From Dudresnaya verticillata (taxonomy: Eukaryota), in NCBI GenBank assembly GCA_977862235.1, contig OZ374557.1, positions 2,108,001 through 2,172,000 of the forward strand: 64,000 nucleotides of DNA. Reading direction: 5' to 3'. Below the pieces are notes generated by a model. It saw nothing but the letters and a program-made list of their open reading frames with translations. It had not been told where the DNA came from and made no database searches. How positions within the stretch are numbered: position 1 is the stretch's first letter; each line of letters opens with the position of its first letter. This document shows, in pieces, positions 4,446-57,129 of the stretch. The position numbers were made by a program, and so were the translations under genes.

Positions 4446-6270
4446 TTAACTCCAGTAACCGTAATATTCGCACCGACACTTACCGCTCAACTCGAGGTCC
4501 CGAATACGTTGACGAAGGTCCGCTCTCTCCGCATCCCGATCACGAAGCTGCCTGCGAGGGCGACTCACCTCCGTGACCGCGCGAAGGAAGCTTCCACCGA
4601 GGTCGTCCAACAGCTGCCGAAGAGTCCCATCGGGGTAAATGCCCGCTTCGCGACACGCATCGCTCACGGAGTCGAGAGTGCGAACATCCGTAGGACAGCG
4701 CATCTCGAGACTCGCGACCGAAGAACCCGAAGCGCTCGACATCAACGCAACGGCCCCGGTGCCAAGAGCTGACCCCGGAGTCAGCGACGGCGAAATTGCC
4801 GGAGCTACGGAACGAGGCACACGCGGCAACGGACCAACCTCGCCTCCGATGGCACGAACCGCGGCACTCGGATGCGAAAACGGACCAACTCGCGGACCGC
4901 GCCCCCCGTAAAGGACGGTTGTGCCAATCGAACCAGGCTCCGGAACCCACGTCGTGACCGACCACTTGGGACCGCTGTCCCGTCGGAAATCGCGACGAAT
5001 CGACTGGAGCTGCCTCCGATCCGCATCCTCGATGGCAATCGCGAGTATCTTCGTGAACGGCATCATGCGATCCGAGCCTCGGGGCGAAAGATCCAGATAC
5101 CCGCCATCCTCGGAGAACGACTTCGACCAACGATCACGAACGAAACTACGCAACGAAGCATCGAGCACCCATACATATTGACGCTGCGTGACATCCGAAA
5201 TCAACGCGCGACCAAGCTCGAAGCGATATTCGGAATCCCAAAAACGCAAGAAGCACTTCTTCGTATGTTCCGCAAACAGGTCGAAAACGAGACCGAAGTA
5301 ACGAATCACCCTCGGAGGTGGCACGACTAAGCCCGCGGGGGCCCGAATACACGCAGTATCGAGCCAGAACGAACTCGGAAACATGCTCAGAAGCACGCGG
5401 TCATCGAGACGCGAATTCGTATCCACGCAATCGGGCATCGAGCCCGCGCCACGAAACAGCGCCCAGTCTCCGGCACCGAAGTGCACTCCGAGGATGCGAG
5501 AAATCGAGTCTACGTGACGACCTACGTTTCCCGCGGCGGACTCGAACTCTGGGTAATCACGAAAGCGAGCAACCGCAACCACCGGAGAATCCACGGAGAT
5601 ACCCGCACCCGGTGCCAGGAGCACACGCGCACACGTATCTATGTAAGCAACCTCGTAGGCCGTGGTCACGTAGGAGACGTCAAACGGAAGGCCCGTCGGA
5701 GTCGGATACACGGGGCCAGAATACGTGAAAGACGCCGGCTCCGCTATCATCGCGACCCTCGCAAAGCGCACGAAAGCGGGCGAGATCCAGACGAACACGG
5801 CCATCGTAGGCAGAAACCTCTTCGTGAGTAGCTCCGGAGATCGCGAACGTATCCCACGCGAAGTACAACTGCGCAGACGGAAGCCTCGGAGCACTCTTAT
5901 CCTTTGCCCCGAATTTCGGAGGACCCAACGAAGCACTCGGCTGCCAACTCCGATTCACGAATTGTGGATTCGAACCGCCAGAACGTACGTACGGACTACC
6001 GAGGTCCGCCGCACACGAAGGCCCCGAAGCCCCAATGTCCACCACGTGGGGAATCTCGAGAGTCCGTGGTACGTATTAACCGGCGTCAGCCGCAGGACCA
6101 GCGGCATTAGATGAAGGACCCGAATCCCTCGGAGGCACCGCAGCATCCCGCGTGGGCTCCGAGGCCACACGTTCCGCGGCAGCAGCGAGCTCACCCTCGA
6201 GGCGACGACGAGGCGCATCGACGCGCTCTTCGTGGGACTCGGTTCCCTTCTCGTGACCCTTGTCCACCAT
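4446..6270 (-). pseudogene. Antisense accessory ORF of E1 (unknown family), with one in-frame stop (6076) and one frameshift (~5715)
   Basis: ORF pieces 6076-6270, 5680-6045 and 4446-5936 align collinearly with the E3 antisense protein (YFAWD/VFAWE, DDSGAG/DDGGAA, PTGLPFDVSYVTT/PNGLPCDVSFVTT, WVLD). Confidence 0.85.
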
Positions 6271-6875
6271 CGTAGGATACGTGACACGAAGTTAACCTTA
6301 ACGCAGCCCACGGAGGACGCGCAACACTTGCCCCAACACCGAGACCCGCAATCCACAACCGACCACCGCAAACCACCGAGGCCAACGAAGCAACAATACG
6401 AATGCCATGGAGCGGAGCGAACGATGCGAGAAGAGATGCACACGGACGCAACAGCGCAACACGAAGGAGCCGACGGAAGACGCAAAAAACCGAAGCCAAG
6501 GAGCGGAAGCGAATTGTGTGTGTGCGCGATGATCGGAGAATCAAGGGGCTCGGACCCAACGCAACACGAAGTTGAGATAACCCACGCGGCTCGCGCCCCG
6601 TCTCCGTGATCCGCGCGCACACGCGTCGACGGACGGCGCCGAAGCCCTGACCCGTTCTACGTACGCGAAATATTTTCGTGATTAGCCAATACGAAGGCGC
6701 CATCGCACACGTGATCCGAATTCAAATTCGTAAGCCCCGAGGCATCGCTGCGCGACGAAGTGAGATGGAAGCAAGCTCCGCGCCGCCACTCGGATGGCTT
6801 CATCCCCGCACCACCGAGGGAAACCGGGCCACGCCAATTCGTGATTCGTAACCCGCGACCGGGACGTTCGCTCTT

Positions 6876-6888
6876 GAGGAGGGGGCCG
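6876..6888 (+). other. Polypurine tract of E1
   Basis: GAGGAGGGGGCCG immediately 5' of the LTR TG; the same GGGGGCCG-TG signature occurs in E2 and E3. Confidence 0.85.
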
Positions 6889-8129
6889 TGTGGCATAGAC
6901 GTTGTGCGCAAAACGACTCCGTGGTCTACGTGAAAATAATCGAGAAATACGAATTTCGAAGTAACTCCGTGAATGTGCACGCCACGATGGCAAACGTATT
7001 ACAGTGCGCATACACAATACTGTTCGCGAGCCAAGATGGCATTCGTATTACAGCACGCACGCAATACGAAATCGCAGACACCTCCGGCCGAATTCCGAGC
7101 TGACTTCGTGATCGCGCGCGCCACGATGACATTCGCATCACAGGGCGCACCCGATACAAAATCGCTGACACCTTCGTGATCTTCCCGTTGTTTCCCGCGC
7201 GTAACGACACCGAGGCCCACGACACGCATGCTCCTCCGCATGCATTGCTGGCGCACTTCGTAACCACCACCACACGTGAGACGACCGTTCGTTGGCACGG
7301 AGGCCGTTACGAATCATTTGAGTACGAACCGTCTCCCGCGTTGACGTGTATTAGTGCTCACTTAGTATTACTTATCCAATCGTCTGGCACAACCGCTGAG
7401 GGTTTCCGGTAAGCGACTAGCGCCTGGACCTCGGAGTGTTCGTTAAACGCCTGTTTCTTCGAGTTCGGTGTCTTCGTCTTCGTGACCGCGGATACGGTCG
7501 AGCCTCGCTTTAGATACCCCCGTGCACCCGGAGTTATCTCCGGTGATCAATCGCTCGAGTTCTCCCTTCCGCACACGAATACGTTGACACCGTGGTCCTT
7601 CGTGTTGGTCGCTCCACTCTACCACGCTACCACCCCTTTTCGTTTCTCCGTTAGGCTACGAGGCCATTCGTTAGGCTCCGAGGCCATTCCTTACAGTGCG
7701 AGACTTCCCCGCGTCACTGTAGACTTCGTTATAGCACACTGTAGTCTATTTAGTAGTCGCCCCTCCGGGCTTGAGTAGAACAAGGTAAGCCAGCTACGAC
7801 AGGCTTGCCCCTTTCTGCTTTGGGTTTATTTCCCAGTTCTTCTCCCTACGGCATCCATCTTTCCATAGCCGCCTAGTCCTTCTTTTTCTTTTCCCTACCG
7901 TCAACTTCGTGACGCCCCACGACGGGGACGCAGGGATATGGCCGCTGCCACCCGCATACGGTCCGCCCCGTGCGCGCTCAGGCTTCGACGCCGTTGATCC
8001 GCGACCGTCGACGGCGCGCGCGGCCGACACCACCGCTCTACCACCACCGCTACCACCCTTCGACGGGTCTGGGTGCGATTACGAGACCAGCCGCGCTAGA
8101 CGTCAGTTAGACCTGACGTCTATGTCACA
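6889..8129 (+). repeat. 3' LTR of E1 (~1241 bp)
   Basis: TG...CA ends with a 13/14-bp terminal inverted repeat; follows the PPT; last ~200 bp align with U5 of the E3 LTR. Confidence 0.85.
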
Positions 8130-11788: not shown

Positions 11789-12492
11789 GCTGCATCCGTA
11801 ACTTTTCTGCTGCGCTTCTGGTGGAAGTCGTGCGACCCTGCAGCAGGTCCTCAGTTGGATCCACGGCTGCTCGGCTCAGACATTCTGTAAGAATCTAGAT
11901 GGCAGAGTGGAATCGCGGTATAACTAATGGCACATGGCTTTCGCCTTCCTGCGTACATCTTGTGCTCAGCTACGTTTCCCACTCCGTTCAGGTACGATGC
12001 ATATCGCTAAACTACATGCTCAGGCCCTGGTTTGTACACTTTGAGTGGTTATTTTATTAGGGCCCTATATCAACGTCTCTGGACCAAGTTGAGAGTATTG
12101 ATTTTGAAAATCACCTTACGCTGAGCCTTCGCAGTTACGGCCCTTGCGTACAACCGCGCTCATATATTAGATTCCTATTCTCCAAAACAAATCTCATTGC
12201 GAAGCTCTGTCAACGACTTGGCACGTCCCACACGAACTGTACAAAGCGATAATGTGCTCTCCATTTCCGAGCATGACGAGGTCCATGTATGTATCCCGCA
12301 TCTTCCGGTGGTGCTCTTGTACGAGTATGGAGTCGTTTCTAGTGTGAATGCTGCTACGCAGACGAGTAGAAAGGGCTACACCCCAGTTGCCGGTAATAAC
12401 TTCAATTCATACACGGCTCATTCTATGAACAACCCTGGAGAATACACTGAAACGGACTGCACGTGACGCAAGGCATTTAGCAGCAATTGTCG

Positions 12493-15312: not shown

Positions 15313-15333
15313 GAGGACTCTGAGAGCTTAGGT

Positions 15334-22843: not shown

Positions 22844-23344
22844 CAATTGTCGCAGCAGCCCCTCTCCCGCTTCAATAATTGCACCATTCCCCGCTGAATT
22901 AATTCGGGAGAGCTCTGTAAGTAAATGTAAGGAACGCGGCCGTCGCTCTGGCGACGGCGCCGGCCGCTGCAGTCGATTGATACTAAGTGCTCGGGTTCGC
23001 CGTCCCTCTCTCGTCCGGGGTACGAGGAAGAGAAAGCATTTGATTATATCAGGTGCACGCTAAGGCGGTCAGCCCCGGCTCTCTATTTCAGTAAACTATC
23101 CGTTTTTGACCTTCCCCCATCATGCAGAACAGCCAGTATCCTGATCTTACAGGATACGTTCCGCGTGAAGTGCAGATTCTGTGTACCACGACAATCCGGA
23201 TTCGGTGCACTCAACCTGCACTCTTCTCGATCGCCGATCTCGATCTACCGGCTTCTCCCGCGATCCGACCCGCCGTTACAAGATGCCGCAGTTGACTCGC
23301 ACCCAGTTCATGGAAAGCTTCTTAAGAAGTTAAATGTTGTGAGC

Positions 23345-23637
23345 ATGGCTGATCAGCCAGCCGTAGCTCTGATCAGTGCTGCCAAGTCTACCCTTGAGCT
23401 CTACACAGGCTCCGAAGTTGCCTCGTCTTCCGACTCGACTGCAGCGCAACAGATCTCTGTGCCTGATCCGAAGGATGTGGTCTCTTTCATGCACCTTGTT
23501 CCACCATCGACTAAGGAGATCTTCCAGGATAACGTCTTCGTGACACCGCTCTTCCCGGTGATGATGCTGTATGGGATTGCGAAGCTATACGGTTTCGACA
23601 ATGCTGACGTCACCTACGTCGAAGAGGTTCTTCTCAC
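23345..23637 (+). pseudogene. 5' fragment of an ORF cut by the E2 LTR; possibly the N-terminus of the KDZ gene
   Basis: ATG at 23345 (MADQPAVALIS...); the protein-like frame is cut at the LTR edge and is in frame with the sequence resuming at 45077. Confidence 0.45.
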
Positions 23638-24327
23638 TGTAATAGAATGGCCACGGGGCCAGGTAGAACGGAAAAAACCAGGACACCTGTCCTATGTGTA
23701 GTAGTATGGCCCGTCAAGGCAGAAACCCGCCAACCGGCAAGGACAGCTGTCCTGACGGTGCACAACACACTAGCTTGGGTAGCTCGGGAAAAGGTTGGTA
23801 GAGACTTTGAAAGGCACAGAGCCTAAGGGAAAAGGGGGGAAATGGGCGGCGCCACCCAGCTCGCACAGAGCAACCGTCGTGTGGAGGCAAGGCTCGTAAA
23901 GCACCTGAAAGGGAGGTTACGGTGAGTCCGTGAATTCCAGAAAAAGGGTAGACCCGAAACCCACCTTGGGTTCTATTCAGGAGGCCCCTGCTACTCAGGG
24001 GCCTATTAAGTATACAGAGCCGAAAATGCTCTTACCTCCTATGAGCTATTCTAGCTGTAATTATTAATCTAATTTTGCTGTTGTCAGTTATAAATACGGA
24101 TTAGTGGTAGTACCGCGTCGGGCCGCGTGAGCGGCCACAATTAATTACCCAATGGCAATTTGCCGTCAAATTTGGTGCCAGCAAGGACGCCAGCGGGGCT
24201 CATCATCCTTACATCGCACGGTGCTTGTGGGCGCCTTACAGCTTGATGCGCGTGGGCGTCTTACACCTTAATGCGCACAAATGACTTACAGTGCGCCAGC
24301 ACTTCTGCTGCGGCTCATTCTTCCACA
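23638..24327 (-). repeat. 3' LTR of E2 (~690 bp)
   Basis: Ends TGTAATAGAATG / CATTCTTCCACA (imperfect inverted repeat); PPT GAGGGGGCCG on the minus strand at 24328-24337; 25-bp tandem units at 24227-24276. Confidence 0.75.
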
Positions 24328-24877
24328 CGGCCCCCTCGTTAGGGCTGAGAGACCCGCGAAGCCAGCAAGGCTGTTTCTATTGTCCCCGTCTTGGGCGAGC
24401 TTGAAATCCCAGTGGGGTATTGGGCCAACGGCTCACTTGTAACCGCCGCCACTGGCGGCCGTTGTGGAACCGTTCACAGTAGTGACAAATCACTTGCTTC
24501 GCCGTCCCAGTCTCGACGGCGCCCGTCTCATAATTGCGACGAACTTTGTGCTCTTTCGCGCGGAAAGCCCCAAGCGGCTGCATACTTCACCAGCATCACA
24601 TCGGCTTCCGCTACAGTTCCCGGGACACATCCACACCTCGTTCAACCATCGTCAGCCGATCTTCCGCGCCTTGCGTCCGGCGACGCCATCTAGCTTTCGC
24701 TTCCTTCCTTTGTGGTGGGCGGTCTGCACCTTACCAATCAACCCATCGAAGAGCGGGATCCGCTGTAACGCGCCTCCTCCCGCGCCCCTCGTTCTACGGC
24801 TTGGCCGCTACTTGCGCTATTGACAAGAGTAGCCACTTTGGCTGTTTAGAAGGCCTGTGCACTCCTTGGAAGTCACG

Positions 24878-27153
24878 ATGAGTTCTAACCAGATGGCTTA
24901 TGGCGCTGCAGGTTCGAGCACCGGTGTGCTGGGCGTTGATGTTGACGAGGTCGGCGTGCCCTTCTCCATGAAGGAGAGTCGCGGTTGGCGCGTACGCACC
25001 GACTTGACGCACCTGAAAGCGAATGCGGGCGCTGACCGTTCCAACATTCGCCGTCGCGGGATGCGCAAGGCGCAGCGCCGCACGTGGCATTCGCATGCCC
25101 GTGCCCGTTTGTCCTTGTTGACGGGGTTGACCCGCCGCCTGCCCACCCTCACGGGTCCGTGTCAGTGGGATTTAGCGCATCCGCGCTTTCGCCATGAGGT
25201 GCGCTACACAGCCACCTTATGCAACAAGCTCAACTTCGAGCTGGAGGAGATCTAACAAGTTCACGATAGTGGCCAGTTCAAGCTGGGGATGGTAGCGCAT
25301 GAGCGCCCGCTGATTCGCAGCGGCAGGGACAACTTCCCTTATACCAAAGCGCGGGTCGTGCGCTGGGATGAAACTTCCAACTTCAAATACGCGTTGGACA
25401 ATCCCCAGACGGCCATGCCGTCCGACCTGGTACGCTTCGAGCGTAGGAATCGCCACCGTACGGGCTGTTTTGTGCCAGTGCACTGCCAAGAGGTCCCCCT
25501 CCATCAAGCCGGATTTCTATAGGGTCAAATACCCTCAAGTTACGGGCGACCATGCGGATCTGGAAGTCTCCTATTCCATGCCGGTGGGCACGCCAACCAT
25601 CATAGCCTATCTTGGCTTAGAGATGATGGACGGTCATGCCGACGAAAACCTCTTATGGTCTATATGTCGGCACGAGTGGGTAGTCATAGTGACTCAGGTG
25701 TTTGTCTACGAAGCCCGTCGGGGCTTGCTGTACTTCATCAGCACTCGTCTTCGTGGAGCCATTCGGGCCATAGGCGCGGCCGCCTTCTTTGCCAACTCGG
25801 CGGATACCGAGGATCTGGACCAGCTATTGGTATTCTGTGAGCGTATCCGCTGGAGCGGTAACACCAAGCGCAGTAGGAACTTGCCAGAGAACACCGGCCA
25901 CGTGACCCGGTCTACGACCGCGGGGACTGGGTCGAGTTCGATCCTGTCAAGTGGCATCCAGTCATTCCCGACTATTTGATGGCACCGATACCCGGGGAGG
26001 GTGAGACCATTGCTCTCGACGAGGGTGAGCGCCGAACGGGCTACACGAAAGGATGGGTCAGCATCCGTTGGCGAGATGAAGGGCCTAAACACCCTGATGA
26101 GGTGCCTCCTTTTGACGACACCGTCAATGGGGAGACTCAGGGGCCGTATGCCCCAGTGTTGCCCCATCATCATCGGGCTGACGCCGAGATTAGGGATCTG
26201 TTTGGTCGGAGGGGCTTGGCCATCCGTTTGGCTGCCCACTGGGGCATTTATTCCCTCAACCTTCACAGTCTTTCTGACTGGGTGGAGGACGTCTTAGCCG
26301 AATATGAGGCTCATTGGATTGGCACCCTGGTCCCATTGAGCGTCTCCTGGCTCATCTGGAGAAGTTGCCCCCATTGGGCGGCCTAAAGGAGGAGCCGGGT
26401 ATCCAGATCAAGAGAGAGCCTGGCTCTAAGGTTCGCCGCGGCATCGACTACGGGAAGCCGGGTTCTTCCGCCCAAGACTCGTCCGGAGCCATCCTGGCGC
26501 CTGGCGCTCGGGAAGCCACTGCGGTTGACGCGTCTAAGATTCCGCGCGAAGAGCCTTCGGCCGGGGTCTCTAACGAGGAGGTCACTATATCATCCAGGAC
26601 CACCGGCGGTCCGGCTGAGCCATCGGCTTCTCGAGTTGGAGTTCCTCTGCGCTCCGTGCTGCCAGGCTCCGTGCCTACGTCTAGCGGCGCGCTACCACGC
26701 GTGGCGCCATCTGGGTCGTTACAGCCGCAGCCGCCGGCTACCAGCGAGAAGGTGGGAGCTTCGTCAGGGCCAAGCCCTACAGTGGCACCGCTTGTGCCTA
26801 TGTCAAGTCAGGCTGAGCTGCCTTCGGGTGGGGCCAAGGAGGTGTCCTAGGCGCCTCAGAGTGATGAGCCGATGGCTAAGGACGACTTGATCGTCAAGAC
26901 GGAACTGGTCCTCAAGGAGGAGGAAGAGTTGGCTCCTGTGGAGGGCGATGTTACGCCGATGGATGTGGACCCGACGACAGCCAACGAGGCTCAAGGCACG
27001 GCAAACGAGGGTACCCGCCGGGGTCGTGGACCGCGTCGTGGCCAGGGTCGGCGGATCATCCGCGAGGTGCGCCGCATCGTGACGACGCGGGCGCCTTCTG
27101 CGCCTAACCCACCTCTTGGCGATGACGAGGTCATTGACCTCCTATCGGATTAG
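24878..27153 (+). pseudogene. Antisense accessory ORF of E2 (unknown family), disrupted
   Basis: Pieces 24878-25255, 25289-25522, 25368-25979, 25976-26386, 26314-26850 and 26872-27153; the core aligns with the E4 antisense protein (PVGTPTIIAYLG/PSLTPGVLAYVG, LWSICRHEWV/VWSIAKTEQV, DLDQLL..ERIRW/DLAGLL..ETFKW). Confidence 0.8.
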
Positions 27154-31500: not shown

Positions 31501-33051
31501 GTCTTATGCTTATCCTCCGGGGAAACCGGAATCTGCCAGTAGCCTGAGTTGCAGTCCAAGGTTGTGAAATATTGGGCCTCGCCCAGGGAGTCCAAACATT
31601 CGTCCATGCGCGGCAGAGGATACGTATCCTTCACTGTAATCGCGTTCAGCTTGCGATAGTCAACGCAGAAGCGGAGTGACCCGTCGGGCTTCGTAACTAA
31701 GACGACGGGGCTCGCAAACGCAGAGCGTGCAGGCTCTATAACGCCTTCTTTGAGCATTTTGTCGACTCATCCTGTTCTGCTTGACGAGCTTTAGGACCCG
31801 ACCGATATGATTGAGTAAACACAGGTTTCGAACCTTCTTGGAGCTCAATACGGTGTTCGGTCACCTTGATGGTGCCGCGTTGTCCCTCCCACATACCGGC
31901 GAACTGTTTAAGCATGTTGCGTACGCGGCGCCGATCCGAAGTGGACAGGTGTTCCAGCGCGAGGTCATCGACCGTAATAGCGGTTGACGCTAATGTCGCG
32001 ATTTTGATTCCAGGCTTAGAGTCTATATTAGTCTTCAGAGCAGCAGCAAGCCCCGCCCCCCCACATCGGAAAATGTTTCGGACGAGGGAAGCGTGTCACT
32101 GTCAGGAACATTATCCTCGATGGAGACAGTGTATACCGGCGTCTGCGTGGGCGCCGGTACAGCCTTTCCAAGGCTTTGGTTCTTGGAAAGCCGTTGAGGA
32201 CACGAAGAAAAGTTCGCGACTTTGACGTGAAAGAGCCGGTGCTCTTGAATGTTGACGATTCCATTCGTCAACACGACTTGTCGGCGCTCGTATAAGCGGG
32301 AAAGGGATTCCAGGAAGTGTGTTCCTTTGGCGGAACAGGTAACAGGAACCCATGACTCACTGCCGGGCAGTAAATTAGTCGTTTGTGCGACGCGAATGAG
32401 TCGCGAGGTAGGTAACGGGGGAACGTCCATTGGTTCGTCAGACCTGCCCTCGCGAGGTATACCGCATCGGCGGCGTAGAATTGGGTGAATGGACCCGTCG
32501 CGAAGAACCATGTTCTGTTGGCGGACGCGTAACCCTTCCACCTGGGTATCGATAAATGTGCAACCCAAGATGGCATCTACTGCCAATGCCCTTACGACAA
32601 CGAAAGGTTGTCGAACCGTGTAGGACCCGAGCCTGATTATTAGGGAGACTGTTCCCAGTGTAGTTAGTCGGTGACTTGACGCAGAGGTCAAGTTCACAAT
32701 TGACCGCGTTGTAGAAATCCGTTTCTTGTCTTTCGGTGATAGAACATCCGCGCGGATGAGATTAGGGCCTGCCCCGGTATCCAGTACGGAGAGCACACGA
32801 GTAAGATCGTCAACAGAAGTCCCGATGGACGCAGCTACTTTATAATTGTAGCGCAACAAGGAGCAAACGGGATCCTTACAATACTCGTGATACTTCCGTC
32901 CAGGGGATAAGCCCACGGGACGCGCTAAGATCTTCTTGGGAAGAGAAATGACAGATTCACTGACAACCGGTCGATCCGTTGATGAGAAGCTTTCGAAGCT
33001 GTAGCTCGAGGAGCTGGATTCAACGTACCGATCGGGGGGTTCCGATGTCAC
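28569..33051 (-). pseudogene. pol: pol of E2 (PR-RT-RH-IN-chromodomain), frameshifted
   Basis: VLDTGAGPNLI, FCVDYRKLN, YLDD, TDACDYQIG, EKECLAVVW, TDHQAL, HPQTNGQ, GPYTV, chromodomain YRVGW...DTWEP..HLP. Confidence 0.93.
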
Positions 33052-33089
33052 CTGGGATATGTGGTGTACCGAAACCGGTTCCCCCCTCG

Positions 33090-34667
33090 CTAGTTTTTCG
33101 CCTTCGTTGCGGGCGATAGCAGTAGCGGTGGAGGTGGTGGGAAGGGACGAGGCCCTTGGCGTGGTGACCTGGGCGGTTGCCTCGGAGCGTCGATGGGGTG
33201 GTTCAGTCGAGGTTGAAATTGAACCTGTCGATTTCCCCCTTGACTTGCACCCAAATTTTGACGGGGCTCCATCCGTTGCCCCATGGGCGGCCCGGCGGGC
33301 ACTCGCTCGCTAGCGAACTCCGGTAGTCGGCCAACGGTCGCCAACCACGCTTTTTGCTTGTGTGACAGTTGATGAAACTGTCTTCTTTTTAAAGTCTCAA
33401 AAGACTGCTCATCGGTTCGAGCCAAATGTGGACAGTTGGGCTTTTTACGGCCAATGCCGTAGCATTCGAAGCAGATATCATTGGGTTGGTCTTCAACCGT
33501 CACCCACCCAGGGCGTTCAGTCCTGGTTGGCTGTGCCCAGACTGGGAGCCTATTATTGTAGTTCTGCAGTATCGCGTCAACTTCACCGTGATACGGTTGT
33601 TCGTAGTAATACTGTGTCGACCACGAATCCGATTAGGTCGCTGTTGATGGTGGCGCTTCGTTAGCGATGGCGGCCACGACTGCGTCTTCGCTTTACGCAT
33701 CAGAGCCGCTGCTCTTTGAAGTATCCGAATCGGAGGGGGATGCATCCTTCGCCTGGCGAATTAGGAGCGCCCGCCCTGACTTGTGGGTACGAACCTTCTT
33801 TAAGGTCTTCCTTGGTAGTGTCCTATTCGCTTTTGGCGTTCGTCCGCCACCCACTAGCGCCCGATGGGAATCTCCCTGTGCAGTCGCAAGCTCGACGTAA
33901 TCCGCCAGTCTGACAGTCCTTGGGTCCAAGGACGACGTACTTAAAAGCGGCTTCACCGCTGGTAACAACCCCCGAATAAACCTGGTTATCAAGTCTTGTT
34001 CGCTGTACACCCCATCGACTCGACGCGCTTTGTTCTGCAACCTTCTCGAGAAAGTAAACTCGTCCTCATCTGGCTCCTGCGCCATCGTGTCCATCTGAGA
34101 GGCAATCCTCTCAATGTAGACATCCTTGGCATAGGTGCGGAGAAGGTAATTCACGGCTTCGGGCCATTCGGTGAAACCACCATTGTCGTCACCCGCAGCG
34201 TCAAAATTCGCTTCAAACATATCCTTCGCATCCTTCTCGAGGAACTCGGGGATGACGAGGATAGCGGTACCTTCGCTGATGTGGGCTTGATCGAGCTGCC
34301 TCTTCAGCGTGGCTAAGAAGCCAATAATTGACACTGGGTCACTCCCGTCAAAACGGCGACTCCGCATAACGGCCTTGACACGTTTGATTTTCTTCGTGGT
34401 CGCCTCGGTCACCTCGGGCCCGCGGTAATCATCCAGGTTCAATAACCTATACCTTCTATAGGACAGAACCTGTACGAAAGCGGGGTTCCTAGGAGTCAGC
34501 TCCTTAACACCGGAACGTCGGAGACCCCTCCAGGAAGACCACGACGGTCTAGAATGCGAACGGAAACCCGGTCCTTCTTCATCCGATGGACCTGGATTAG
34601 GGTGAGTCCCTGACCGAGGATTTTCTTTGTGACGATGACTCGAATATCTGTCACGATGAGAATCCAC
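33090..34667 (-). pseudogene. gag: gag of E2 (N-terminus missing)
   Basis: SYRRYRL, FDGSDPVSIIGFL and FIRGLLP motifs shared with E3/E4 gag; degenerate knuckle CFECYGIGRKKPNC. Confidence 0.85.
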
Positions 34668-34714
34668 TTGGTCGCGGTGCGCAGAAGACCCAATTGGTCT
34701 TTTGCACTGGCAGC

Positions 34715-35485
34715 TGTAGTATAGCTGTCAGCACCCTACCAGCAGCGGCTGTAAGGTATGCTGGCAGCCCTGCACTGTAATGGTGCACACGATGACGCCC
34801 GCTGGTGAGTCGTGGTTGGGCAGCGTGCCCTTTTTTTCGTTGAATTAGTAGCGGTCGACCGCATTGCTGCCGGCAGCGGCCGCGCGCCGTGCCACACACG
34901 GCGCGCCCCTGTGACGCTCTCCGGCACCGAGCCGTTGAGAGGGCCGCTGCCCGTTACGCCCCGCGCGCGCCCACGGGTAACCGTTACCCGGACGTGTCGA
35001 CACGTGTATGGGCGCACGCTCGCACACCTCCCGCGTTGGTGTTGTGGGGCGCACCTACTGTAGAAGTAGTCGTAGTGCACATAGTGTAGGGTATTTAAGG
35101 CCGTCGGCCATCGACGGCTCAGTAAACCGGGCAAGCAACAGCTCGCGCTGAAGCTTGCCCCCAGCCTTTCCGGGTTCGATGCCTTTGCCTTACGCCAGCG
35201 GGCGGTTTCTCCTTTTCCCCTTGCCTCGCTAGGATTTCCTCTTTCCTTTTCCTTTCCGTCGGCTTCGTGCCGCTCTTCGACAGGGACGCTGGGATCCGGC
35301 CGCTGCCTACCCGCGTACGGTACGCCCCGTGCGCGCTCCGGCATCGACGCCGTCGATCCGCACCTGCGGGGCGCACGCGGCCGACACCGCTCTACCAACC
35401 CCAACAGCTACCCATCGACGGGTCTGTGTGGCGGCTTCGGACCAGCAAGTATCAGACGTCGGATCGACCCGACGTCTATACTACA
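34715..35485 (+). repeat. 5' LTR of E3 (771 bp)
   Basis: TGTAGTATAG...CTATACTACA perfect 10-bp terminal inverted repeat; direct repeat of 44303-45076; TATTTAA box near 35093. Confidence 0.97.
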
Positions 35486-35552: not shown

Positions 35553-37979
35553 ATGTCGAGTCCTCCTGACCCGGCCGCTGCCGCATCGGCCGCTACCGGA
35601 AAAGTTGAGGACGCGACGCGTCGCACCTCAGTACTGAGTACCATCGGCGTCTCAGGTACTCCTCTACACGATGTGAGGCTCGAGCGGAGGGCCGCACTGC
35701 AAAAGGCCCTCGCCGGGAGTCTGGTCTCGGTGGCCGACCTCCACCTGCTGTATGAGGAGACCATGGACTCGTTAGCCGAGGTGTACGGCCACCTTACAGC
35801 TTCGATAGCTGCGGCGAAGGCCGACGGCCAGCAAGACCTGGACACGCTTCGACGCGGTCCTTTGGCGTCCATCGAGGACGGAATAACCCGGTCACAGAGG
35901 CTCCTCGATGAGCTACGCCGCCGCGTTGAGTTGATAGAGCGCCCGCCGACGCGGCAACGCCAGCGGGCTACAGGCCCGTCGTCGGCGCACCGCTCTCCTC
36001 CGCGACCGCAGTCACCAGCGGGTGCAGTTCAAGAATTGGCCGCTGCCATACTTGCCGAGCAACGAGCTCGGCATCGCTTTCCTTCACCACCGCCATCTCC
36101 ACCGAGGAGTGCGGCGGGGTCGCACCATCCGAGTCGGGACCCCAATCCGTTCTACGGGGTCGACCCCAGGTTGCTCCAACAAGCCCTCGACGGGCAAAAC
36201 ACAAAGGGGGGACCGACCCCCCGACAGAACGAGGGCCCCGTCTCTGCCTATTGGCATTGGGGCCCACGCATGGCAGGCATCGAGTCTTTAACCACGCTGG
36301 TGCCAGAGTTCGCTAAGGCGATTGACTACCGCTCGTACCGTCTCGATGATGTCGATCAGCGGGACAATCAACAGCAGGTGTGCAGCGGCAACACTGCGAA
36401 GATTGTCAACCGCATGAAGGCCCTGATGCCCCAGCTCGACCGGTTCGACGGCAAGGAGCCGATTCGCCTGCTTGGTGTGCTTCGACAGCTACGCCAAGCA
36501 TTCAATGGCGTTGGACTATCCGAAGGCGCAACGGCGCGGGTGGTGTCCTGGTTCCTCGATGGAACCGCGTCGCAGGTGTACTCGAGTCACCAGTTCTCTG
36601 GGGTGCGCACAACGCAGCGCGGCACCCCACCCTGCTGGGCCTCGGTGGTCAATACCCTCGTCGAGAGGTTCGTCACGGACGACGTCATCGCAGACGCCCA
36701 TGACCAGCTGACCACCGCCAAGCAGAGGGACGCCGAGTCCGAGCTTGAGTTCGCTGCTCGCCTCGAAGCGTATGCGGACGCCTGCGCTGGCGTGTACTCC
36801 GATGAGAACTTGACGCATCAGTTCCTTCGAGGCCTGCTGCCCACGACAAGACCCGCAGTGGCGGAGAAGGTCAGGCAGCTGCCTATGGTCGAACAGACCA
36901 ATTTTAGTACCGTTCGTCGGATTGCCCATAGCGAGGGCACAACCTACCGCGCCCGTTCGGCAAAGGCAGCGCAGCCTACGAACACCTCGGGGCGCGGCAG
37001 GTCAGGTGGCAGCTCGGCAAGCGGCCGTACACTGCTCATCGAGGGCCCACCAAGCTATCCCAGCGGGGAAGTTGCTATCGACAGCACAATGCTGGTGGAC
37101 CCCGACGCCGACGGGTTCGAACCCGTGATGGTCGCACCCGCGCTATCGACAGCCGGGTCGGCCGAGGCCGTCGAGACCCTCGACATTACAGGACGCATCG
37201 ACGCGGTCCTACCCAAGCGCATACCACCGGTCACTCCAACGCAGGAGGCGATGGCACGCGCAGTCATCCCTGATCGACAGGGATGGTACATCTGCTGGTT
37301 CTGCCGCGAGGTCGGGCACATCATGTATTCGTGCCCGTACCTCACGAAGGAACAGCAGACGTACTGCGCGTATGCGAACTGCAACCATCGAATAGAAACG
37401 CAGCCGCATTCGCGCAATATGCTCCAACAGCTCATCGACGAGCGCGCGCCAGCGGGCGCAAGGACAAGGAGCCCCGCACGGCGCTACGACGCGCCGCGGG
37501 GTGGGGACCGACGCTTCGACGCGAGGGGTCCCCCGCAGCGCATGGGAGCACCAAGGTACCGCGGAGAGCCGCAGGGGTACCGCGGGGATCGTCGAGGCCC
37601 ACGCCGCGAGTAACGCCAAGGCGACGCACCGCGGTTCCTGCTGCGCGATAAGCGGGTCGGCTTCGACGAGCCCGCTGGCCGTCAACCTCAGGAATCGACG
37701 CCTCCGAGGGCCGACCCGCGCCGCGAACTGCTCCGAGCAGTTATGACGGTGCAGGAGCACACCGGCCTCACCGCCGACGAGTGGCTTCCGCAAGCGCTCG
37801 ACGCGCGGCACAAAGGAGAGAAAGCCAGCGGGCAGGGAAGCGATTCCCCTCTCCTTTTTGACACGCCTCCGCGATCGACGCGAGGCGCCTCAGGGGTTAC
37901 GAAACACCCAATCGGAATCGAGCACGAAAGTTCGGATTCCGAGGATAATTCTGACCGGGTCGATCCGGAAAAAGAATAA
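35553..37979 (+). CDS. gag: gag of E3 (one in-frame TAA at 37611-37613)
   Basis: DYRSYRLDD, FDGKEPI, FLRGLLP, CCHC knuckle CWFCREVGHIMYSC; 37743-37979 is the same frame. Confidence 0.88.
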
Positions 37980-37993
37980 AGGCGGCGCCGCTC

Positions 37994-39775
37994 GTGCGGT
38001 CGCGCGCACCGTCTTGTTCAACACCAGACCCACCGTCCCTTTCACCTTCGACGGCGTTGGGGGCAGCGAGCCCCCACGTCGAGCGCAGCGGCGCTTCGAA
38101 GGACACGAACGACGTCCCGGTCGACGGGACGTCGTGGGCGACGCGCACCAAACCACCCTGGCCGCCGCGGCGTCGACGCAAGCGACAGGCCAGGCGGAAA
38201 GGGCGCAGCTCCCCGACGGCGGGACAGGCGGTACCTGACGCTCGACGCGAGGGTACCGGGGCTCCCTGCATCGACGCAGAGCCGGCCACTACCCCCGATG
38301 GGTACGTGTGCCTCCTGTCCTCCGAGATTTACCGAGTGTCCGGGTCCCTCGGTGCGGACCCGCGGGTTATGATACCCCACACCATCGCGGTGGACACCGG
38401 CTCCGGGTACAACCTCATCGCTCGAGGTGCCCTGCCCGCAGGCTGGGAGGAAAACGCGTCAGAGATCGACTCCGCGCCACGCCTGGCAGGCGCCGACAAG
38501 ACTCCGCTGAGGCTGTCCGGCGTCGTCCACCTCTCGATGAGGTTGGGGAACACGACGTTCCGCGTGCCTTTCATCGTCGCCGACACGCTCGCGGTCGACG
38601 TACGGATAGGCACGCAGTTTATCAACGCGCACGTGCGCGAAATCGACGTCGAGTCGAGAATGCTGACGCTGAGGAAAGGAGGCTCGGTGCCCATCCTCAG
38701 CCGCAGGAACCCTAGCGAGGGAACCGATCCGGCAACGCAGCCGAAAACCCCATCGAAGGGTTTGTCGAAGAAGCACCAGCGGGAGCTTCTCGACTGGGAT
38801 CACGATACCCACACCATACGCCTCGCTAGGCAGGTGGTTGTCCCAGCCTACTCGCAGAGGCTCGTCTCGGTGACGTCGGGGGCTAGTGGGTTAATCCACA
38901 CGGAGCCCAAACCCTCGTTGCAGTTCCGCCACGGCGTGAGATTGACCAACGGGGTGCACGACATCGAGTCGGAGCGACCCTTCAAGGTTATCTTGGGCAA
39001 CTGGACGGACAAAGCCCGGACCCTACCGAAGGGTACCGTGGTTGGCTATGCGGTCCGCAACCCAGTCACCCTAATAACCCCGGACCGCGACGTCACGGAA
39101 GAGTTCGGGAGGGTGATGAATATCACCACCCTTCCCCACAAAGGGCAGCGGCCCAGGGGAAAGGGGAGCACCGACCCCCCAGTCACGCCGTCGATGGCGA
39201 GGGGCCCCGAGCCCACAAAGCTCCAAGGGGCAGCAACCGCAGCGGCGGAGAGAGGAGAGTCCATCGAGGACTGGGAGTCGCAGGTGGACCTTTCGTCTAT
39301 CGAAGACAAGGTCACCCGCGAAGAAGTCCTCGCCATGCTTCGGAAGCATCAGTCCATGTGGGACGGGAGGCTAGGCACGATTGCCGCTACGCAACACCAC
39401 ATCGACGTGGAACCCGGCACGCGGCCAATTCGCTCAATGCCCTATCGACAGGGCCCCGCTATGCGGAAGCTCGTACAGAACGAGGTCGAGACCATGCTGC
39501 GGGCAGGGGTAATCGAACCCGCCACGTCGGAGTGGGCATCGCCAGTCGTTCTGTCGCCCAAGAAGGATGGAACGCTCAGGTTTTGTGTGGACTATCGACG
39601 TCTTAACACCAAAACTCTGAGCGATGCGTACCCACTCCCACGCATGGATGACTGTATCGACAGTCTTGGCGACGCTGCCATTTTCGCCACGCTGGATTGT
39701 AACGCGGGGTACTGGCAAATCCCTGTCGCAGCGGCTGACAGGGATAAGACCACGTTCACGACGTTCCTAGGGACC
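37994..39775 (+). pseudogene. pol: pol of E3: protease plus RT N-terminal part; rest of RT, RH and IN deleted
   Basis: AVDTGSGYNLI, FCVDYRRLN, LDCNAGYWQI, KTTFTTFLGT, then abrupt loss of homology. Confidence 0.92.
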
Positions 39776-41058
39776 GCAGGCATTCGTTGCCTTTTGCGAA
39801 TGCAATCGATGCCTCACCCTACCCTGCACTGGGCACCGAGCCTAGACAGGTCACCCTTGCGCCAGCGGCAGCGGCAGCAGCGCAAGAGGGGGCAGCAGAA
39901 CGCTGATTCCGGCGCATCGATGCGCGCAGGGCGGCTGCCAGCCAACCAAGCCTGGGGCAGCGGCCCCGGGCTGGTCGCACTCACTCGCAAGCGGCGAGGA
40001 GACGAAGCCGCTACCTCGCCTTCGCACGTGACAGGCGTCGACGCCTCACGCACGCAAGGTAAGGGGCGCTGACCAGCGGCTACCGAAGCCGCTAACCAGC
40101 TCCCCGCACGCGGCGCTACCGCCGCTCACGCCAGTGCAACCCAACACGCCAGCCGCAGCGGCTGCTGGGCGAGAAGGGGTCACACCAGCGTGAGTGCGGA
40201 GCGGGCGCGTCGACGCGTCCAAGGCCGTCGCTGTCGAAGCGAAGTGGTGTGAGACAAAGGGCAGCGGCCCGATCGCCACCTCATGCGGGTGCACCGAAGT
40301 GCCGTTGCACTCCATGCGCAACGGCACCCCAAAAGCGCACGCCACTTTTGGCGTGCGCCTCGGCGCGGGACGCACGCAGCGCATCGAGCGCGAAAAGTGT
40401 TCCGGCTGCAGTACGTACTGTAGCCGGGGGTCGGGAAACACCCAACCAGGTCAGCGGGCCGGAAGGCAACAGCCAATGCAAGGGGTTGCGAAAAATCCCC
40501 AGCCAACGATTGGCTATAATTTGGGCGCAAACCGCCTCCCGACGGGAGCAACAGCAGCGGCTGATCGAGTAGCCAGAAGTGCCGCGCCGCCGGCAAGTGG
40601 GTGCGAGGCAGCGGCCTCGCCGAAGCTAGCCGCTGTGGCACCAGGCACCCAAGACGGGCGCGCAAGGGCAACCACTGTGGCCTCCCCCATGCCAAGGCGG
40701 CATGCCGCGCAGCGGCGCTGGGAGCCACATGGGACCGGCACGCTTGCCTATTGCACCTGAGCAGCGGCTCACGCAAGCCCCGCGTCGAGAAGACCGCTGT
40801 CGTAGCGCAATGGCGATGCACGCGGGCTCGACGCGCGCGCGCAGCACTCACCGTGGGCAGCGGCCCGATGTGGTGAGCTGCTGCGCCGGCGAACGCTCTC
40901 GCCACAAATAAGTTCGCATCGACGCGGGCCGAAGCCATATCCCACCCCTTTCCCTTTTAACATCTCTAACGACGCAGCGGCGTAACTGGACTAAAAGGCG
41001 CAGCGGCGCTCTAATCGCTGGGTGCCACGGCACCCGCAGACACAATGCGTCGATCGCA

Positions 41059-44302: not shown

Positions 44303-45076
44303 TGTAGTATAGCTGTCAGCACACTATCAGCAGCGGCTGTAATGTATGCTGGCAGCCCTGCACTGTAATGGTGCACACGATGACGCCCGCTGGCGAGTCG
44401 TGGTTGGGCGGCGTGCCCTTAGTTTTTTTGTTGAATTAGTAGCGGTCGACCGCATTGCTGCCGGCAGCGGCCGCGCGCCGTGCCGCACACGGCGCGCCCC
44501 TGTGACGCTCTCCGGCATCGAGCCGTTGAGAGGCCCGCTGCCCGTTTCGCCCCGCGCGCGCCCACGGGTAACCGTTACCCGGACGAGTCGACACGTATAT
44601 GGGCGCGCGCTCGCACACCTCCCGCGTTGGTGTTGTGGGGCGCACCTACTGTAGAAGTAGTCGTAGTGCACATAGTGTAGGGTATTTAAGGCCGTCGGCC
44701 ATCGATGGCTCAGTAAACCGGGCAAGCAACAGCTCGCGCTGAAGCTTGCCCCCAGCCTTTCCGGGTTCGATGCCTTTGCCTTACGCCAGCGGGCGGTTTC
44801 CCCTTTTCCCCTTGCCTCGCTAGGCTTTCCCCTTTCCTTTTCCTTTCCGTCGGCTTCGTGCCGCCCTTCGACAGGGACGCTGGGATCCGGCCGCTGTCTA
44901 CCCGCGTACGGTACGCCCCGTGCGCGCTCCCGCATCGACGCCGTCGATCCGCACCTGCGGGGCGCACGCGGCCGACACCGCTCTACCAACCCCAACAGCT
45001 ACCCATCGACGGGTCTGTGTGGCGGCTTCGGACCAGCAAGTATCAGACGTCGGATCGACCCGACGTCTATACTACA
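44303..45076 (+). repeat. 3' LTR of E3 (774 bp)
   Basis: Direct repeat of 34715-35485 with ~20 differences. Confidence 0.97.
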
Positions 45077-51263: not shown

Positions 51264-51339
51264 TCAGGGCGACCTTGTGCTTTGACTCTCCTAGTCGTAT
51301 TCAAGGATCCTCTCAGGTCAATCGTGTTATTTCCAAAGA

Positions 51340-52905: not shown

Positions 52906-54009
52906 CACAGTAGGAGTGTCACAGGGGATACCGTAACTTCTAATCAATACTCGATGGTTAGACGGACTGGAAAACGAATGTTGCGTCGCGCTGCTCTAAC
53001 AGACACATCCCAAAATTCATCGGAGTAAGGGAATTCCCTTCGATTAATGAAACTGAAACGTTCATGGTCGTACATTTCTTCGTATCCATGAAAACATCAG
53101 AACAGCCAAGACGTGCCCAAGTCGTTTTACTGCGGCGACTACTGATCTATAGTGTGTGACAGATGTCCACACGGTTCATCCCTCTACACTCTCTTCCCCG
53201 GTGAGTGTTCTGTGCTTCTGGTCTTGTGTGCTCTGCTCGTGTGCTCTGCTCTTGTACGGGAAAGGCAAAGTAATTAGGTAATGTAGTTTGTAGTGTAGAA
53301 AGCCATGCCTCGTAAGGTAAACATTGGGGTTTGTACCACTTAGGATTCATAGCTACTGTACCAACAACTAAATTCCTTTTGGTAGACGAAGGTAAATTCA
53401 CCAACCTGTTTTTGCTTCAACTGATACAGGTGGCGGTTATCTTTATCCATTTCAAACTGCATACTCATTGCGAGTAATACTCAATGCGATTAACTAATTG
53501 CGTTTCTAATTCATTCAGAAATTACTGCAATGTTTAATATGATTGAGAAGCCATTCTCGTGTCTTAAACACAAATACAGTGTTGTTGAATGTTTTCTGCT
53601 GCAAAAGCATCGCTTGGTGAATTGTGGTGTTTGAAAGATTCGTAAATGCAAGTTTATGATTTTTGAAGAGGCTGTCTGCTTTTATTCAGTGGAACTACAA
53701 CAAGATTGTTTAAATATTGGTAGAGAATGTTTGCATGAATTATTCACAGAAAATACGAATTGAATGTTTAATAAATTGGAACACGCTTTCAGATGCATGT
53801 AACTCTGAAAAATGGCAATTGTAGTGTTTAATAAATGTAGAGCATCTTTCCATCTTTTTAAGTATTGTAAAGTGTGTATGGAATGTTTGTACTTCATTAG
53901 CGAAGAATAATTCAACTGTATTCATCAAGAGTCAAGAACCTGTTTATTATGTACAGTTCTGGGGGCAATGATGGAAACGGCGGCGAATTGCCGTCGTTTT
54001 TCACCACAG

Positions 54010-54197: not shown

Positions 54198-54716
54198 TGT
54201 AAGGAAGTGCCTTTTAGGTCTCTTGTGAACTCAAAGAGTGCACTTAATGAGAAATCCACAGAGCGGGTACCTGGTAGCGGTGGTAGAGCGGGAGGAACCC
54301 AGAGGGTAGACGAGGGCACGTAACCTGATTGGAAGCACGATACTGAAGGTAGTTCACTGGGCGGGCGGTTAACCGGGCACGGGTGACAAGTGTGCTGCGG
54401 TGCCGGTAGCTTGGAGACGTAGTTGGGGCCGGAATGTGCTTACCTTTACTGTTCAGTGACCGCTACGGGAGATACCCTTATATGGTACTCCGACTGTCAG
54501 GCAGCACCCCTCATACTGGGCTATATACACGCCCCCTATCCTAAGCTATAATTTCTAAAATAAATAGGCAGATACTAAGCTACTGACCTGCAGGGTGACA
54601 CTTGGACCAATCATAGACTACCCATCTTGTCCCTGCTGGCGCCCTATAGGTAACGCTATTTCCGCGCATACACGGGTGCAGAGGGCCCATTTCTGTAAGC
54701 CCTTCACTGTATTACA
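54198..54716 (-). repeat. 3' LTR of E4 (519 bp)
   Basis: TGTAAG...ATTACA; repeats 63565-64000; G-rich PPT GGGGGGCTC on the minus strand at 54717-54725. Confidence 0.93.
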
Positions 54717-54899
54717 GAGCCCCCCGAGATTGCGGCCCGTCCTCGGGACGCCAGGGCAGACTGCACGTGTTTCGCGCGAAATCATAACCGTTTGGTATCC
54801 AGACGGCTCGACGCCCATGACCGTCGTCGGCCGGCAATCGATCCCGCGTGCAGCAGTACTTCTCTTCCGCAGCAGCATTATCTCAAAGGTTTTTCCAAC

Positions 54900-57129
54900 A
54901 TGGTCCTACGTCAACCGCAACCAACACCACGCCGTTCACCACCCCGTCGGCGTCGTCTCTCCAGCCCCGACGTGGTCTTTCCAGTCACGCCTTGCGCAAG
55001 CCGCGGAGGTGACTACGCCGCGATGGCCCAGTCTTCCCCCATAGGTGGCCACGGAGGTTTGTCGGTGTTTTCCAATCAGGAGGTTCTGGAGCAGTTTCCA
55101 CTCCAAGGTTACCTCGTGGACGCCAACCTGGACACCTACCGCTTCCGGGCGATCCCCGAAGGTAAGCGCGAGAACCAGTGGGTTGCGCGTCTGCGTCACT
55201 GTCCGCCGAGCGTCCTTATTCCGAATCACTACGGTAGTGACCTCAAGTGGTTGCGTGTCGGGTTTGAAGAAGACTACGTCCCCTCGCTCTACCGCTTCCT
55301 TGAGGGTAACCAGTGGGTGAACGAAATCAAGTTATTTCCCGAGTCACTCCTGGAGTTGAAGCCTTTTCCCGACCTGTGGTGGTTAACCGAGCGGTGGGCA
55401 GTGGATATCTGGACGGAGACGCTCATCCGCAACCGTACCGATGGTCTCCTAGCGGGGTTTCACAATGTTGAAATGTGGAATATCCCCATGGGTCGGCGTC
55501 GGGATCACTACGTGAGGAAACCCAGCTGGTGGCACGCCATCGAAGGTCCGCGCTCATTGCCGTCGTTAACTCCGGGAGTGCTGGCGTACGTCGGCGCCCA
55601 TGCGCGTGACTCCTCGGCAAAGTGGTATTACCCAGTGTGGTCAATCGCCAAAACCGAGCAGGTACTCCACGTAGCGTTGGCATTTCTTCAGGCAGCCTAT
55701 TTTGGTATGTGGGACTCAATGCCCTATACCGAAGCTGGTTACCATGCCCAGGATGGTCTACCGGATGGTCGCCTTTTCCGCTTGTCCAAGACACTCGTCG
55801 AGTCAATCCGCACCCTTGGGGTCGACCTCATTTGTGGGGGTAGTACCTTTTCGGGTGACGACTTGGCGGGATTGCTAACCGCATCGGAGACCTTCAAGTG
55901 GGCCGCCGGCGAGGTTTGGGTTGCTTATGACCCCGAGGTTTCCGAAGCGATGGACCGATTTGGTAGGCGACATAACGTTGATAACCGTCCTGGTCCGCCT
56001 TTCTACTCCTTTGGGGAGGCAGAGGGCATGGGTCGGGGCTGGGGTCACATGGGGCCGAACTCGGATAGAAACCAAGTGGTCGACGACGATGAGACGCCCA
56101 CCTACAGTGGTTACCCCGACAGGACGCGTAGAGCGGCAGGGCCTGGGCCTCCAGCGAGGACCGCGCGCCTGGGTCCGGGGGCGCGTCCGGGGACTCCAAA
56201 GCCACAAGCGGCACCGGGGACAGTAACGTAAATGCGTGAGGCGCGTCCGACGACACCCGCACGGACACCTTCCACTGGCATACCCCCGATGGTCACTCCT
56301 GAGGCAGCGACTCGACAAGTTAACCCATTGGCTTCACCGAGTGGTCCCTCTGGTGCAGCGACGGTCCCAACTGGAATGACCCTATCTGCCTCGGGTCACC
56401 TTAAATTTGGTCGACTTCAAGAGGCGTGTCGCGCTGCGAAAATCGTGGTACCGGCAACCGTAGAGGATGCTCTGGCTGCCGCTCGGGAGTGGGTGTCGAA
56501 GGAGGCACTCCTGACTTGGCTACTCCGGGAGGTGGCCCAGATTGGGAACTTCCAAGTGAACCAACTGGGTACCCATATGGCGACGATGGACCGTTTGGGA
56601 ACCGAAGTGGCAAATGTCGGGGCGTCTCTTGCGAGTATGGCGGCTGCAATGCCGCAGAACGCCACGAGTTTCGTCACTTCCTGTAACAAGTTCACCCGGG
56701 AGGTCTTACGCAAGAGCGATCTTCAGCCGAAGACTTCCGCCCGTGGCGTGACCGATTCGCTTACCCAAGTGGTGAACTATCAACCGGGTGAACCTTTGGC
56801 TCTGGCGTCGTCAGGGCCGGCTCAGGGAGCTGAGCGGCAATCCGCTGCTTCGGCGGATATTACCAACGTGCTTGTGGGGGGGGCCGCCTAAGGAGACTCC
56901 AGCTGGCTCCTCTACCTATCAGGTGACGCAGCCTCTTCCTGCCGGGGTCAATACCAGTGTGGGTACTCCCGTGGAGGTAGGGAGCCGAGCGTCGCTGCAC
57001 GAAGCGACTCCTAGAGTTACCACGCCTGCGGAGACTCGTAGGGCGTCTCCTTTCCAACCCCGTCGCCTTGCGTCTTCTCGTTCGGGCGACTTCGAGGAGT
57101 CGGTTGGGAAACGGTCCCGTTATCAGTAG
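54900..57129 (+). pseudogene. Antisense accessory ORF of E4 (unknown family); in-frame stop at 56229, probable frameshift in a G-run near 56880
   Basis: 54900-56231 and 56232-56891 share a frame; core homologous to the E2 antisense ORF; ends GKRSRYQ. Confidence 0.82.

Follow-up and report, generated by a model that had tools for sequence, protein, structure and literature searches.

A probable antisense third gene of an unnamed protein family in Ty3/gypsy retrotransposons of the red seaweed Dudresnaya verticillata

The present analysis concerns a stretch of 64,000 nucleotides from the red seaweed Dudresnaya verticillata (GenBank assembly GCA_977862235.1, contig OZ374557.1, positions 2,108,001 to 2,172,000 of the forward strand), which is referred to as the window and whose own numbering is used throughout. 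It contains four Ty3/gypsy retrotransposons, here termed E1 to E4. In all four of them an additional gene lies between pol (or a pol remnant) and the 3′ long terminal repeat (LTR), on the strand opposite to gag-pol. We consider it very probable that this antisense frame is a real gene under selection. Judged by sequence, its products in E1 and E3 form one unnamed protein family with 22 further proteins, and E2 and E4 probably carry a diverged branch of it. A nuclear role against host silencing may tentatively be proposed. The four antisense genes are the following:

6270-4446, minus strand: antisense gene of E1, interrupted by a single stop at codon 65 and a single change of frame near 5750-5800; conserved core at about 5000-5930.
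24878..27153, plus strand: antisense gene of E2, broken by at least two stops and three frame changes; a family-like motif lies in the piece 25314-25976.
43983-41059, minus strand: antisense gene of E3, intact, 974 amino acids; core at amino acids ~280-610 (43146-42150), helical or coiled-coil-like stretch at ~730-815, low-complexity tails.
54900..57129, plus strand: antisense gene of E4, with 443 open codons, a stop at 56229-56231, a further 219 codons and a frame change near 56890; core at about 55050-55994.

An earlier note on this DNA had placed an antisense open reading frame (ORF) in each element. The coordinates of all four genes proved correct, and so did slot and orientation; however, the frame is intact in E3 only, whereas those of E1, E2 and E4 contain stops or frameshifts. 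The 974 amino acids of E3 compare with a longest frame of 583 codons in 2000 base shuffles of the same region, and a length of 443 codons, as found open at the start of the E4 gene, was reached by 0 of 2000 shuffles. The distance from the 3′ LTR to the start codon, which lies inside the element, is about 620 bases in E1, 110 in E2 (with tentative LTR boundaries), 320 in E3 and 185 in E4. The antisense promoter could accordingly lie within the element, as it does in Grande gene23, and not in the LTR. Near-palindromic sites of the form TTTCGCGCG(G)AAA occur at 24554-24566 and 54770-54781, about 310 and 120 bases ahead of the antisense ATGs of E2 and E4, and the rest of the window has none. Their pattern was defined post hoc, so that a shuffle count is not a fair test of it. 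The site resembles an E2F site.

The antisense proteins of E1 and E3 had been described as related at the protein level, and this is confirmed. They share 63 of 203 residues (31%; tblastn, E 1e-17), and their local alignment score of 212 compares with 54±7 for shuffled sequences (0 of 200 shuffles reach 212). In the upstream frame of E1, a further ~70 amino acids match the family profile (27.5 bits). Nucleotide identity between the two genes is 0.45, 0.52 and 0.31 at the first, second and third codon position, the third being the most diverged, and 36 of 59 identical residues are encoded by different codons. Both observations indicate selection on the antisense strand and in this frame. The possibility that the antisense frames are a shadow of a sense gene was ruled out by this codon pattern, by the lower score of the opposite-strand frames of E1 and E3 (164 vs 212), and by the stops that each of the other five frames contains across the cores of E1, E3 and E4. 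No similarity of gag to the antisense proteins was found.

A two-row profile of E1 and E3 was searched against 1.84 billion representative sequences and gave 18 matches. Sixteen of these are real and align across the core, while P0012 and P0013 were dropped as tandem-repeat artefacts. A second profile search added 6 new homologues among 7 matches, which brings the total to 22, all of them unnamed predictions from ENA or Logan. Core identity to these proteins is mostly 16-40%. Among the 16 sequences that cover 200 or more core residues (the 6 shorter ones excluded), pairwise identity ranges from 16 to 85% with a median of 24%, and their tree has deep branches and poor resolution, 5 of its 13 inner branches being starred. 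Full-length members share a common plan: a disordered N-terminal arm, a core of ~330 amino acids, a linker, a helix with coiled coil, and a disordered tail. In 7/7 comparisons with P0002, conservation is highest in the core; its identity exceeds that of the C-terminal tail in four close homologues (0.59-0.73 vs 0.31-0.44) as well as in two distant ones (0.33-0.39 vs 0.19-0.27). Near-invariant core positions (E3 numbering) include W301, R325, P354, F363, D374, P403, F485 and E506. Searches of a word index, for which the E3 core and E4 served as queries, returned no matches. Homologues of the E4 type were likewise not found, the deep profile search having used E1 and E3 only. Locus scans of JGI metagenomes, IMG/VR, GTDB genomes and phages gave no relatives. 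No description of the family was found in the literature covered; Repbase, subscription journals and bioRxiv supplements (e.g. the Bostrychia transposable element tables) lie outside it and may hold one. Nothing on the family was found in PMC6338049, PMC6431247, PMC5029228 and 10.1101/2021.04.13.439636.

Could the gene have been captured from the host, or be a neutral passenger? Three of the four copies are broken, and the genomic context of the homologues is unseen. However, the same slot and orientation recur in four elements whose integrases (E1, E2 and E4) are only 46-56% identical, and there is no named host protein among the 22 homologues. At least six near-identical 672-amino-acid variants stand on separate short contigs, which is repeat-like, though a single gene sampled repeatedly could produce the same picture. 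We regard a host gene or passenger as most improbable. The earlier claim of a selected third gene is supported by the 22 further homologues, by a core conserved above the tails, by third codon positions that are the most diverged, and by a confident fold model.

This model of the E3 core, built on an 18-sequence alignment, has a predicted local distance difference test score (pLDDT) of 79 and a predicted template modelling score (pTM) of 0.81. It is mainly helical, with short strands and a terminal hairpin. Foldseek searches with it gave no match standing out, neither in PDB (best E 0.8) nor among the viral models of BFVD (best E 0.98). In VIA the best Z was 4.2 (root-mean-square deviation (rmsd) 4.8, 76 aligned) and 0 of 48,161 chains reached Z 5; these alignments span mainly residues 228-326 of the core, whose N-terminal part was not folded separately. 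Fold searches with the E4 model remained at a best E of 1.4 and a best Z of 3.8 (rmsd 3.0, 88 aligned). PDB sequence searches gave weak matches only, mostly to coiled coils (best E 0.31 and 0.1), and the same holds for PHROGs and NCBIfam. Pfam gave no core match for 18 proteins at E up to 0.1 or for 20 members at E up to 1. Going by the model, the E3 core may possibly be a new fold, of which a missing match in PDB, BFVD and VIA is not proof. The combination of profile, model and Foldseek search suggested previously has yielded a confident core model and no match to a characterised domain, but no significant link of E4 to a single family. A second helical segment that by eye looked SAP/HeH-like was dropped as a candidate: a profile of 11 homologues found none of the four window genes significantly, and Pfam was unhelpful.

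Further features bear on what the core might do. No transmembrane stretch was found in the cores: the highest 19-residue hydropathy is 1.1-1.8 in 14 of 16 sequences, and 2.2 is reached only in the extra N-terminal extensions of P0029 and P0053. An env-like ORF was rejected, the gene being antisense and its core lacking a transmembrane segment. The core contains neither a metal-binding Cys/His set nor a six-cysteine zinc cluster; its sole partly conserved cysteine is C359 (13/17). Against this background, a new-fold enzyme acting, for example, on nucleic acid or chromatin marks appears clearly unlikely. No enzyme fold was matched, and the charged residues which are conserved in the ~330-amino-acid globular core and which speak for an enzyme (R325 in 14/14, D374 in 17/18, R422 in 15/18, D432 in 14/17 and E506 in 10/11 sequences, E3 numbering) could be structural salt bridges.

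Whether E2 and E4 belong to the same family requires separate consideration. A core profile built free of E2 and E4 ranks the E2 piece 25314-25976 as the best non-self match in the six frames of the window (E 0.003-0.016), and this match falls exactly at the P-x-hh-x-Y-x-G...EW motif named in the earlier note. With a part of the profile that was picked after seeing the match, E2 reaches a glocal score of 30.8 bits (z 9.3), and 12 other test sequences stay at or below 9.3 bits. With hhalign, E2 is the best among 12 single sequences (P 0.014). E2 and E4 in turn align with a score of 80 against 36±4 for shuffles (0 of 300 as high), although tblastn gives an E of only 0.01, and their similarity covers the very segment of E2's match to the family.

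E4 was also compared with the family directly. Its alignment to the family profile is colinear over ~300 amino acids, including the terminal YDP hairpin motif, but z is only 1.1-2.9 while a gag decoy reaches 3.3. hhalign of E4 and E2 together gives P 0.055, and P 0.14 against a trimmed profile, a value matched by 9 of 135 shuffles. A model of E4 on an imposed family alignment shows the same helix order (pLDDT 63, pTM 0.64), which is partly circular. The slot may hold two unrelated genes, one family in E1 and E3 and another in E2 and E4, a question of kinship and not of function. Besides the figures for E4, the unmatched N-terminal piece of E2 fits this idea, as do the plant extra ORFs (eORFs), which fall into 314 unrelated groups (PMC6317226). 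Nevertheless, the ranking of E2 by an independent profile, its score above all 12 others, its similarity to E4 over that segment and the colinearity of E4 argue against two families, which we hold to be possible but doubtful. One family in all four elements, with E4 joining it through its match to E2, is probable from these sequence comparisons. Of the previous claims on this point, the P-x-hh-x-Y / E pattern linking the two pairs holds for E2 and does not reach significance for E4, kinship of E2 and E4 has the shuffles on its side but not tblastn, and a family spanning all four is clear for E1 and E3, moderate for E2 and, for E4, reached only via E2.

Based on these data, we propose that the third gene of these gypsy elements, antisense and coding for a protein of an unnamed family, likely has a promoter of its own close to the purine tract or the 3′ LTR and would give its own mRNA. 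The protein would enter the nucleus through basic patches in its disordered arms, oligomerise through its coiled coil, and act on the chromatin or transcription of the element, keeping its parent out of host silencing. The chromodomain on gypsy integrases steers insertion into silent chromatin, so that a factor which maintains transcription there would benefit new copies. The proposal builds on the chromodomain of the E4 integrase and on transposon precedents, i.e. Grande GENE23 and the accessory genes of red-algal DNA transposons. We assign a probability of about 0.4 to such a nuclear counter-silencing role.

A number of observations weigh against this role. Basic patches in the N-terminal arm are present in 7 of 12 homologues and in E4, but missing in 5 of 12, and 5 of the 7 carriers belong to one subfamily. 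The core itself is not basic (K+R about equal to D+E), and neither Pfam nor the fold searches recognise a DNA-binding or chromatin-enzyme domain in it. E4 alone scores no better than decoys against the family profile, the breakage of three copies out of four extends to the pol genes, and the residence of the 22 homologues in retrotransposons is assumed, their genomic context being unseen. Localisation and binding are predicted, the role itself being proposed from sequence and precedent. A late GK(R/C)xR motif, formerly noted in E1, E3 and E4 and a conceivable nuclear signal, is not conserved in the family: E3 has GKRPR and the last frame of E4 GKRSR, but E1 reads GKCRC and the exact motif occurs in 0 of 12 homologues scanned.

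Alternatively, the same gene may act after transcription, in a manner similar to retroviral accessory proteins, by exporting or protecting genomic RNA, suppressing RNA silencing, or supporting import or site choice of the pre-integration complex. Roles of this sort have been proposed for antisense ORFs (PMC7264820), and a charge-neutral core without DNA-binding fold is compatible with them. Short DPY/PNPY-type motifs, often repeated, occur in the tails of 11 of 12 full-length homologues (set P0001-P0053) and could bind host adaptors; however, they are missing from the scanned stretches of E1, E3 and E4. The core also lacks an RNA-binding domain and a transmembrane segment, and a gene that yields a separate antisense mRNA has no link to Gag stoichiometry. 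Altogether we consider a post-transcriptional role somewhat unlikely.

A brake on copy number, by which the protein or the antisense RNA limits transposition of the family, would be in line with the state of E3, which lost half of its reverse transcriptase together with RNase H and integrase, yet keeps the antisense gene and gag open. A single deleted copy, however, carries little weight. While antisense transcripts can feed silencing by small interfering RNAs (PMC7264820), a role of the RNA only fails to explain protein conservation down to ~16-30% identity, and the missing similarity to gag also argues against a brake, which thus appears very unlikely. Returning to the counter-silencing role, its most far-reaching version would be that a red-algal lineage of chromodomain gypsy elements has carried the third gene since before the four families split, and that a protein of new fold recognises its own element and undoes silencing as a counterpart of VANC. 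In this full form the idea seems unlikely.

The window as a whole is a transposon cluster with 55% GC. It comprises the four Ty3/gypsy elements, a Mutator-type element, a region with a PIF1 helicase and one intronless gene with a Hint module. The parts of the gypsy elements other than the antisense genes are:

1..2850, plus strand: E1 pol (end of protease, reverse transcriptase, RNase H, integrase, broken chromodomain by eye), interrupted; the element extends past the window start.
6889..8129, plus strand: E1 3′ LTR, whose start is deduced from a purine tract at 6876 and whose 3′ part resembles the E3 LTR at 79%.
28572..34714, minus strand: E2 gag-pol (gag, reverse transcriptase, RNase H, integrase, weak chromodomain match), interrupted; 5′ end cut by E3.
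22927..24771, minus strand: probable E2 3′ LTR; boundaries tentative, partner LTR absent.
34715..35485, plus strand: E3 5′ LTR, directly followed by the primer-binding site.
35553..39780, plus strand: E3 gag (open) and pol, the latter ending in the middle of reverse transcriptase, without RNase H and integrase.
44303..45076, plus strand: E3 3′ LTR, 751/771 identical to the 5′ LTR, purine tract just ahead; target-site duplication absent.
54199..54716, minus strand: E4 3′ LTR, 432/435 identical to the in-window part of the 5′ LTR.
57390..63529, minus strand: E4 gag-pol (gag, protease, reverse transcriptase, RNase H, integrase, chromodomain), interrupted.
63566..64000, minus strand: E4 5′ LTR, cut by the window end.

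The hallmarks of Ty3/gypsy elements (gag followed by protease, reverse transcriptase, RNase H and integrase; LTRs with TG..CA ends; primer-binding site; purine tract) are complete in E4, in which all parts including the chromodomain were identified, and partial in the other three. E1 lacks its 5′ end, which lies beyond the window start. E2 lost its own to E3, which lies at the junction of the PIF1 region and E2 gag. In E3, pol stops at ~39780, halfway into the reverse transcriptase, for which an internal deletion is the simplest reading. The element (34715-45076) retains open gag, protease, half of the reverse transcriptase and the antisense gene; if present in multiple copies, it would represent a non-autonomous family that keeps the extra gene. 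E1, E2 and E4 are distinct families given the low identity of their integrases, and E1 and E3 are the closest pair in reverse transcriptase and LTR. The primer-binding sites of E3 (35486-35505) and E4 (63545-63565) share the same 18 nucleotides despite unrelated LTRs. E4 pol (57390-61488) contains several frame changes and a stop, yet the LTRs are 99% identical, which may suggest an inherited defective family or assembly errors. At the C-terminus of the integrase, the chromodomain (PF00385) is found in E4 with E 4e-9 and in E2 with E 0.0085, which is below the cut-off; in E1 it is visible by eye only. Chromodomain gypsy elements exist outside the chromovirus clade, so that the domain alone does not make E1 to E4 chromoviruses (PMC12477816). 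According to an early survey, no retrotransposon chromodomains were detected in three red algae (PMC3350952).

The Mutator-type element (12492-22844) is bounded by long terminal inverted repeats (86-93% complementary) and contains a MULE/SWIM transposase (15313-18402) as well as an ORF with weak similarity to Ulp1 proteases (13051-14208). Its Pro/Ala-rich ORFs on the opposite strand (18909-22492) have no Pfam match and are possibly another accessory gene. The intronless ORF at 9785-11785 encodes a hydrophobic N-terminus, a Cys-rich middle part and, at the C-terminus, a Hint module (E 3e-29); its lack of introns is in keeping with a red alga. Reports of Hint/Hog genes come from red algae, mosses and protists (PMC2362128), and such genes are expanded in red seaweed (10.1101/2025.02.11.637652). 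The region 45077-53000 holds several unassigned ORFs and a hairpin of ~140 nucleotides (48371-48506), followed by a PIF1-like helicase (51295-52902); this is possibly a Helitron-like or other element. A further LTR fragment is suggested at 8130-8740, where on the minus strand TGT at 8737 comes after a purine tract.

The role of antisense extra genes in LTR retrotransposons is an acknowledged open question (PMC7264820, PMC11963269). The present family makes it testable: one of its natural copies is intact, its 22 further homologues are diverse, its model is confident and unmatched, and a few of its residues are near-invariant. Its occurrence in a red seaweed bears on the expansion of LTR elements in these genomes, whose silencing machinery is little studied (10.1101/2025.02.11.637652).

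In comparison with known systems, the gene arrangement is of a known kind, namely an antisense extra ORF, while the protein family that occupies it is unnamed and its predicted fold unmatched. As regards the criteria for an aORF-3R, the antisense slot is present in 4/4 elements, and conservation at the protein level extends across families. Grande, RIRE2, Retand, PvRetro13 and the fungal Boty are described as carrying antisense ORFs at this position, with functions reported as not known; the GENE23 protein of Grande is nuclear, and its gene is driven by a promoter of its own (PMC7264820). The eORFs of plants form a heterogeneous set and reside mostly in non-chromoviruses (PMC6317226). Antisense ORFs, which the earlier note mentions for some plant Tat/Retand elements, also occur elsewhere, e.g. 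in Boty (PMC7264820).

Maize Grande gene23, rice RIRE2, Silene Retand and bean PvRetro13 resemble the present genes in position, orientation, size range and a coiled-coil stretch (PMC7264820, PMC6317226). However, there is no sequence or Pfam link to them, and integrases of the E1-E4 type have a chromodomain and not the features of Tat/Retand. The TRP28 domain of Retand (PF04195) is similar in being antisense and conserved throughout its lineage, with a proposed regulatory role, but it is confined to flowering plants (PMC11963269). PF04195, PF03078 (Athila ORF1) and PF10536 (plant mobile domain) match none of 20 family members (E up to 1) or 18 proteins (E up to 0.1). The brtn gene of Boty/BcGypsy1 from Botrytis and Sclerotinia is another antisense gene in a non-plant gypsy element (PMC7264820, 10.1101/2021.04.13.439636); in the E1/E3 family the core has ~330 amino acids and no cysteine cluster.

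Further counterparts are found among DNA transposons. The Plavaka accessory genes PAG1-3 of red algae are proposed to modify the chromatin of their own element (10.1101/2025.02.11.637652). No Pfam match to ParB, adenine methylase, SET or 2OG-oxygenase (PAG2/PAG3-type) was obtained for the present family, PAG1 has no defined domain, and VANC does not appear among the matches listed for the E3 core in the fold searches. Although their carriers are DNA transposons and not gypsy elements, VANC of VANDAL and PAG1-3 are likewise accessory proteins that a mobile element brings along, and they provide the model for the role suggested here (10.1101/2025.02.11.637652).

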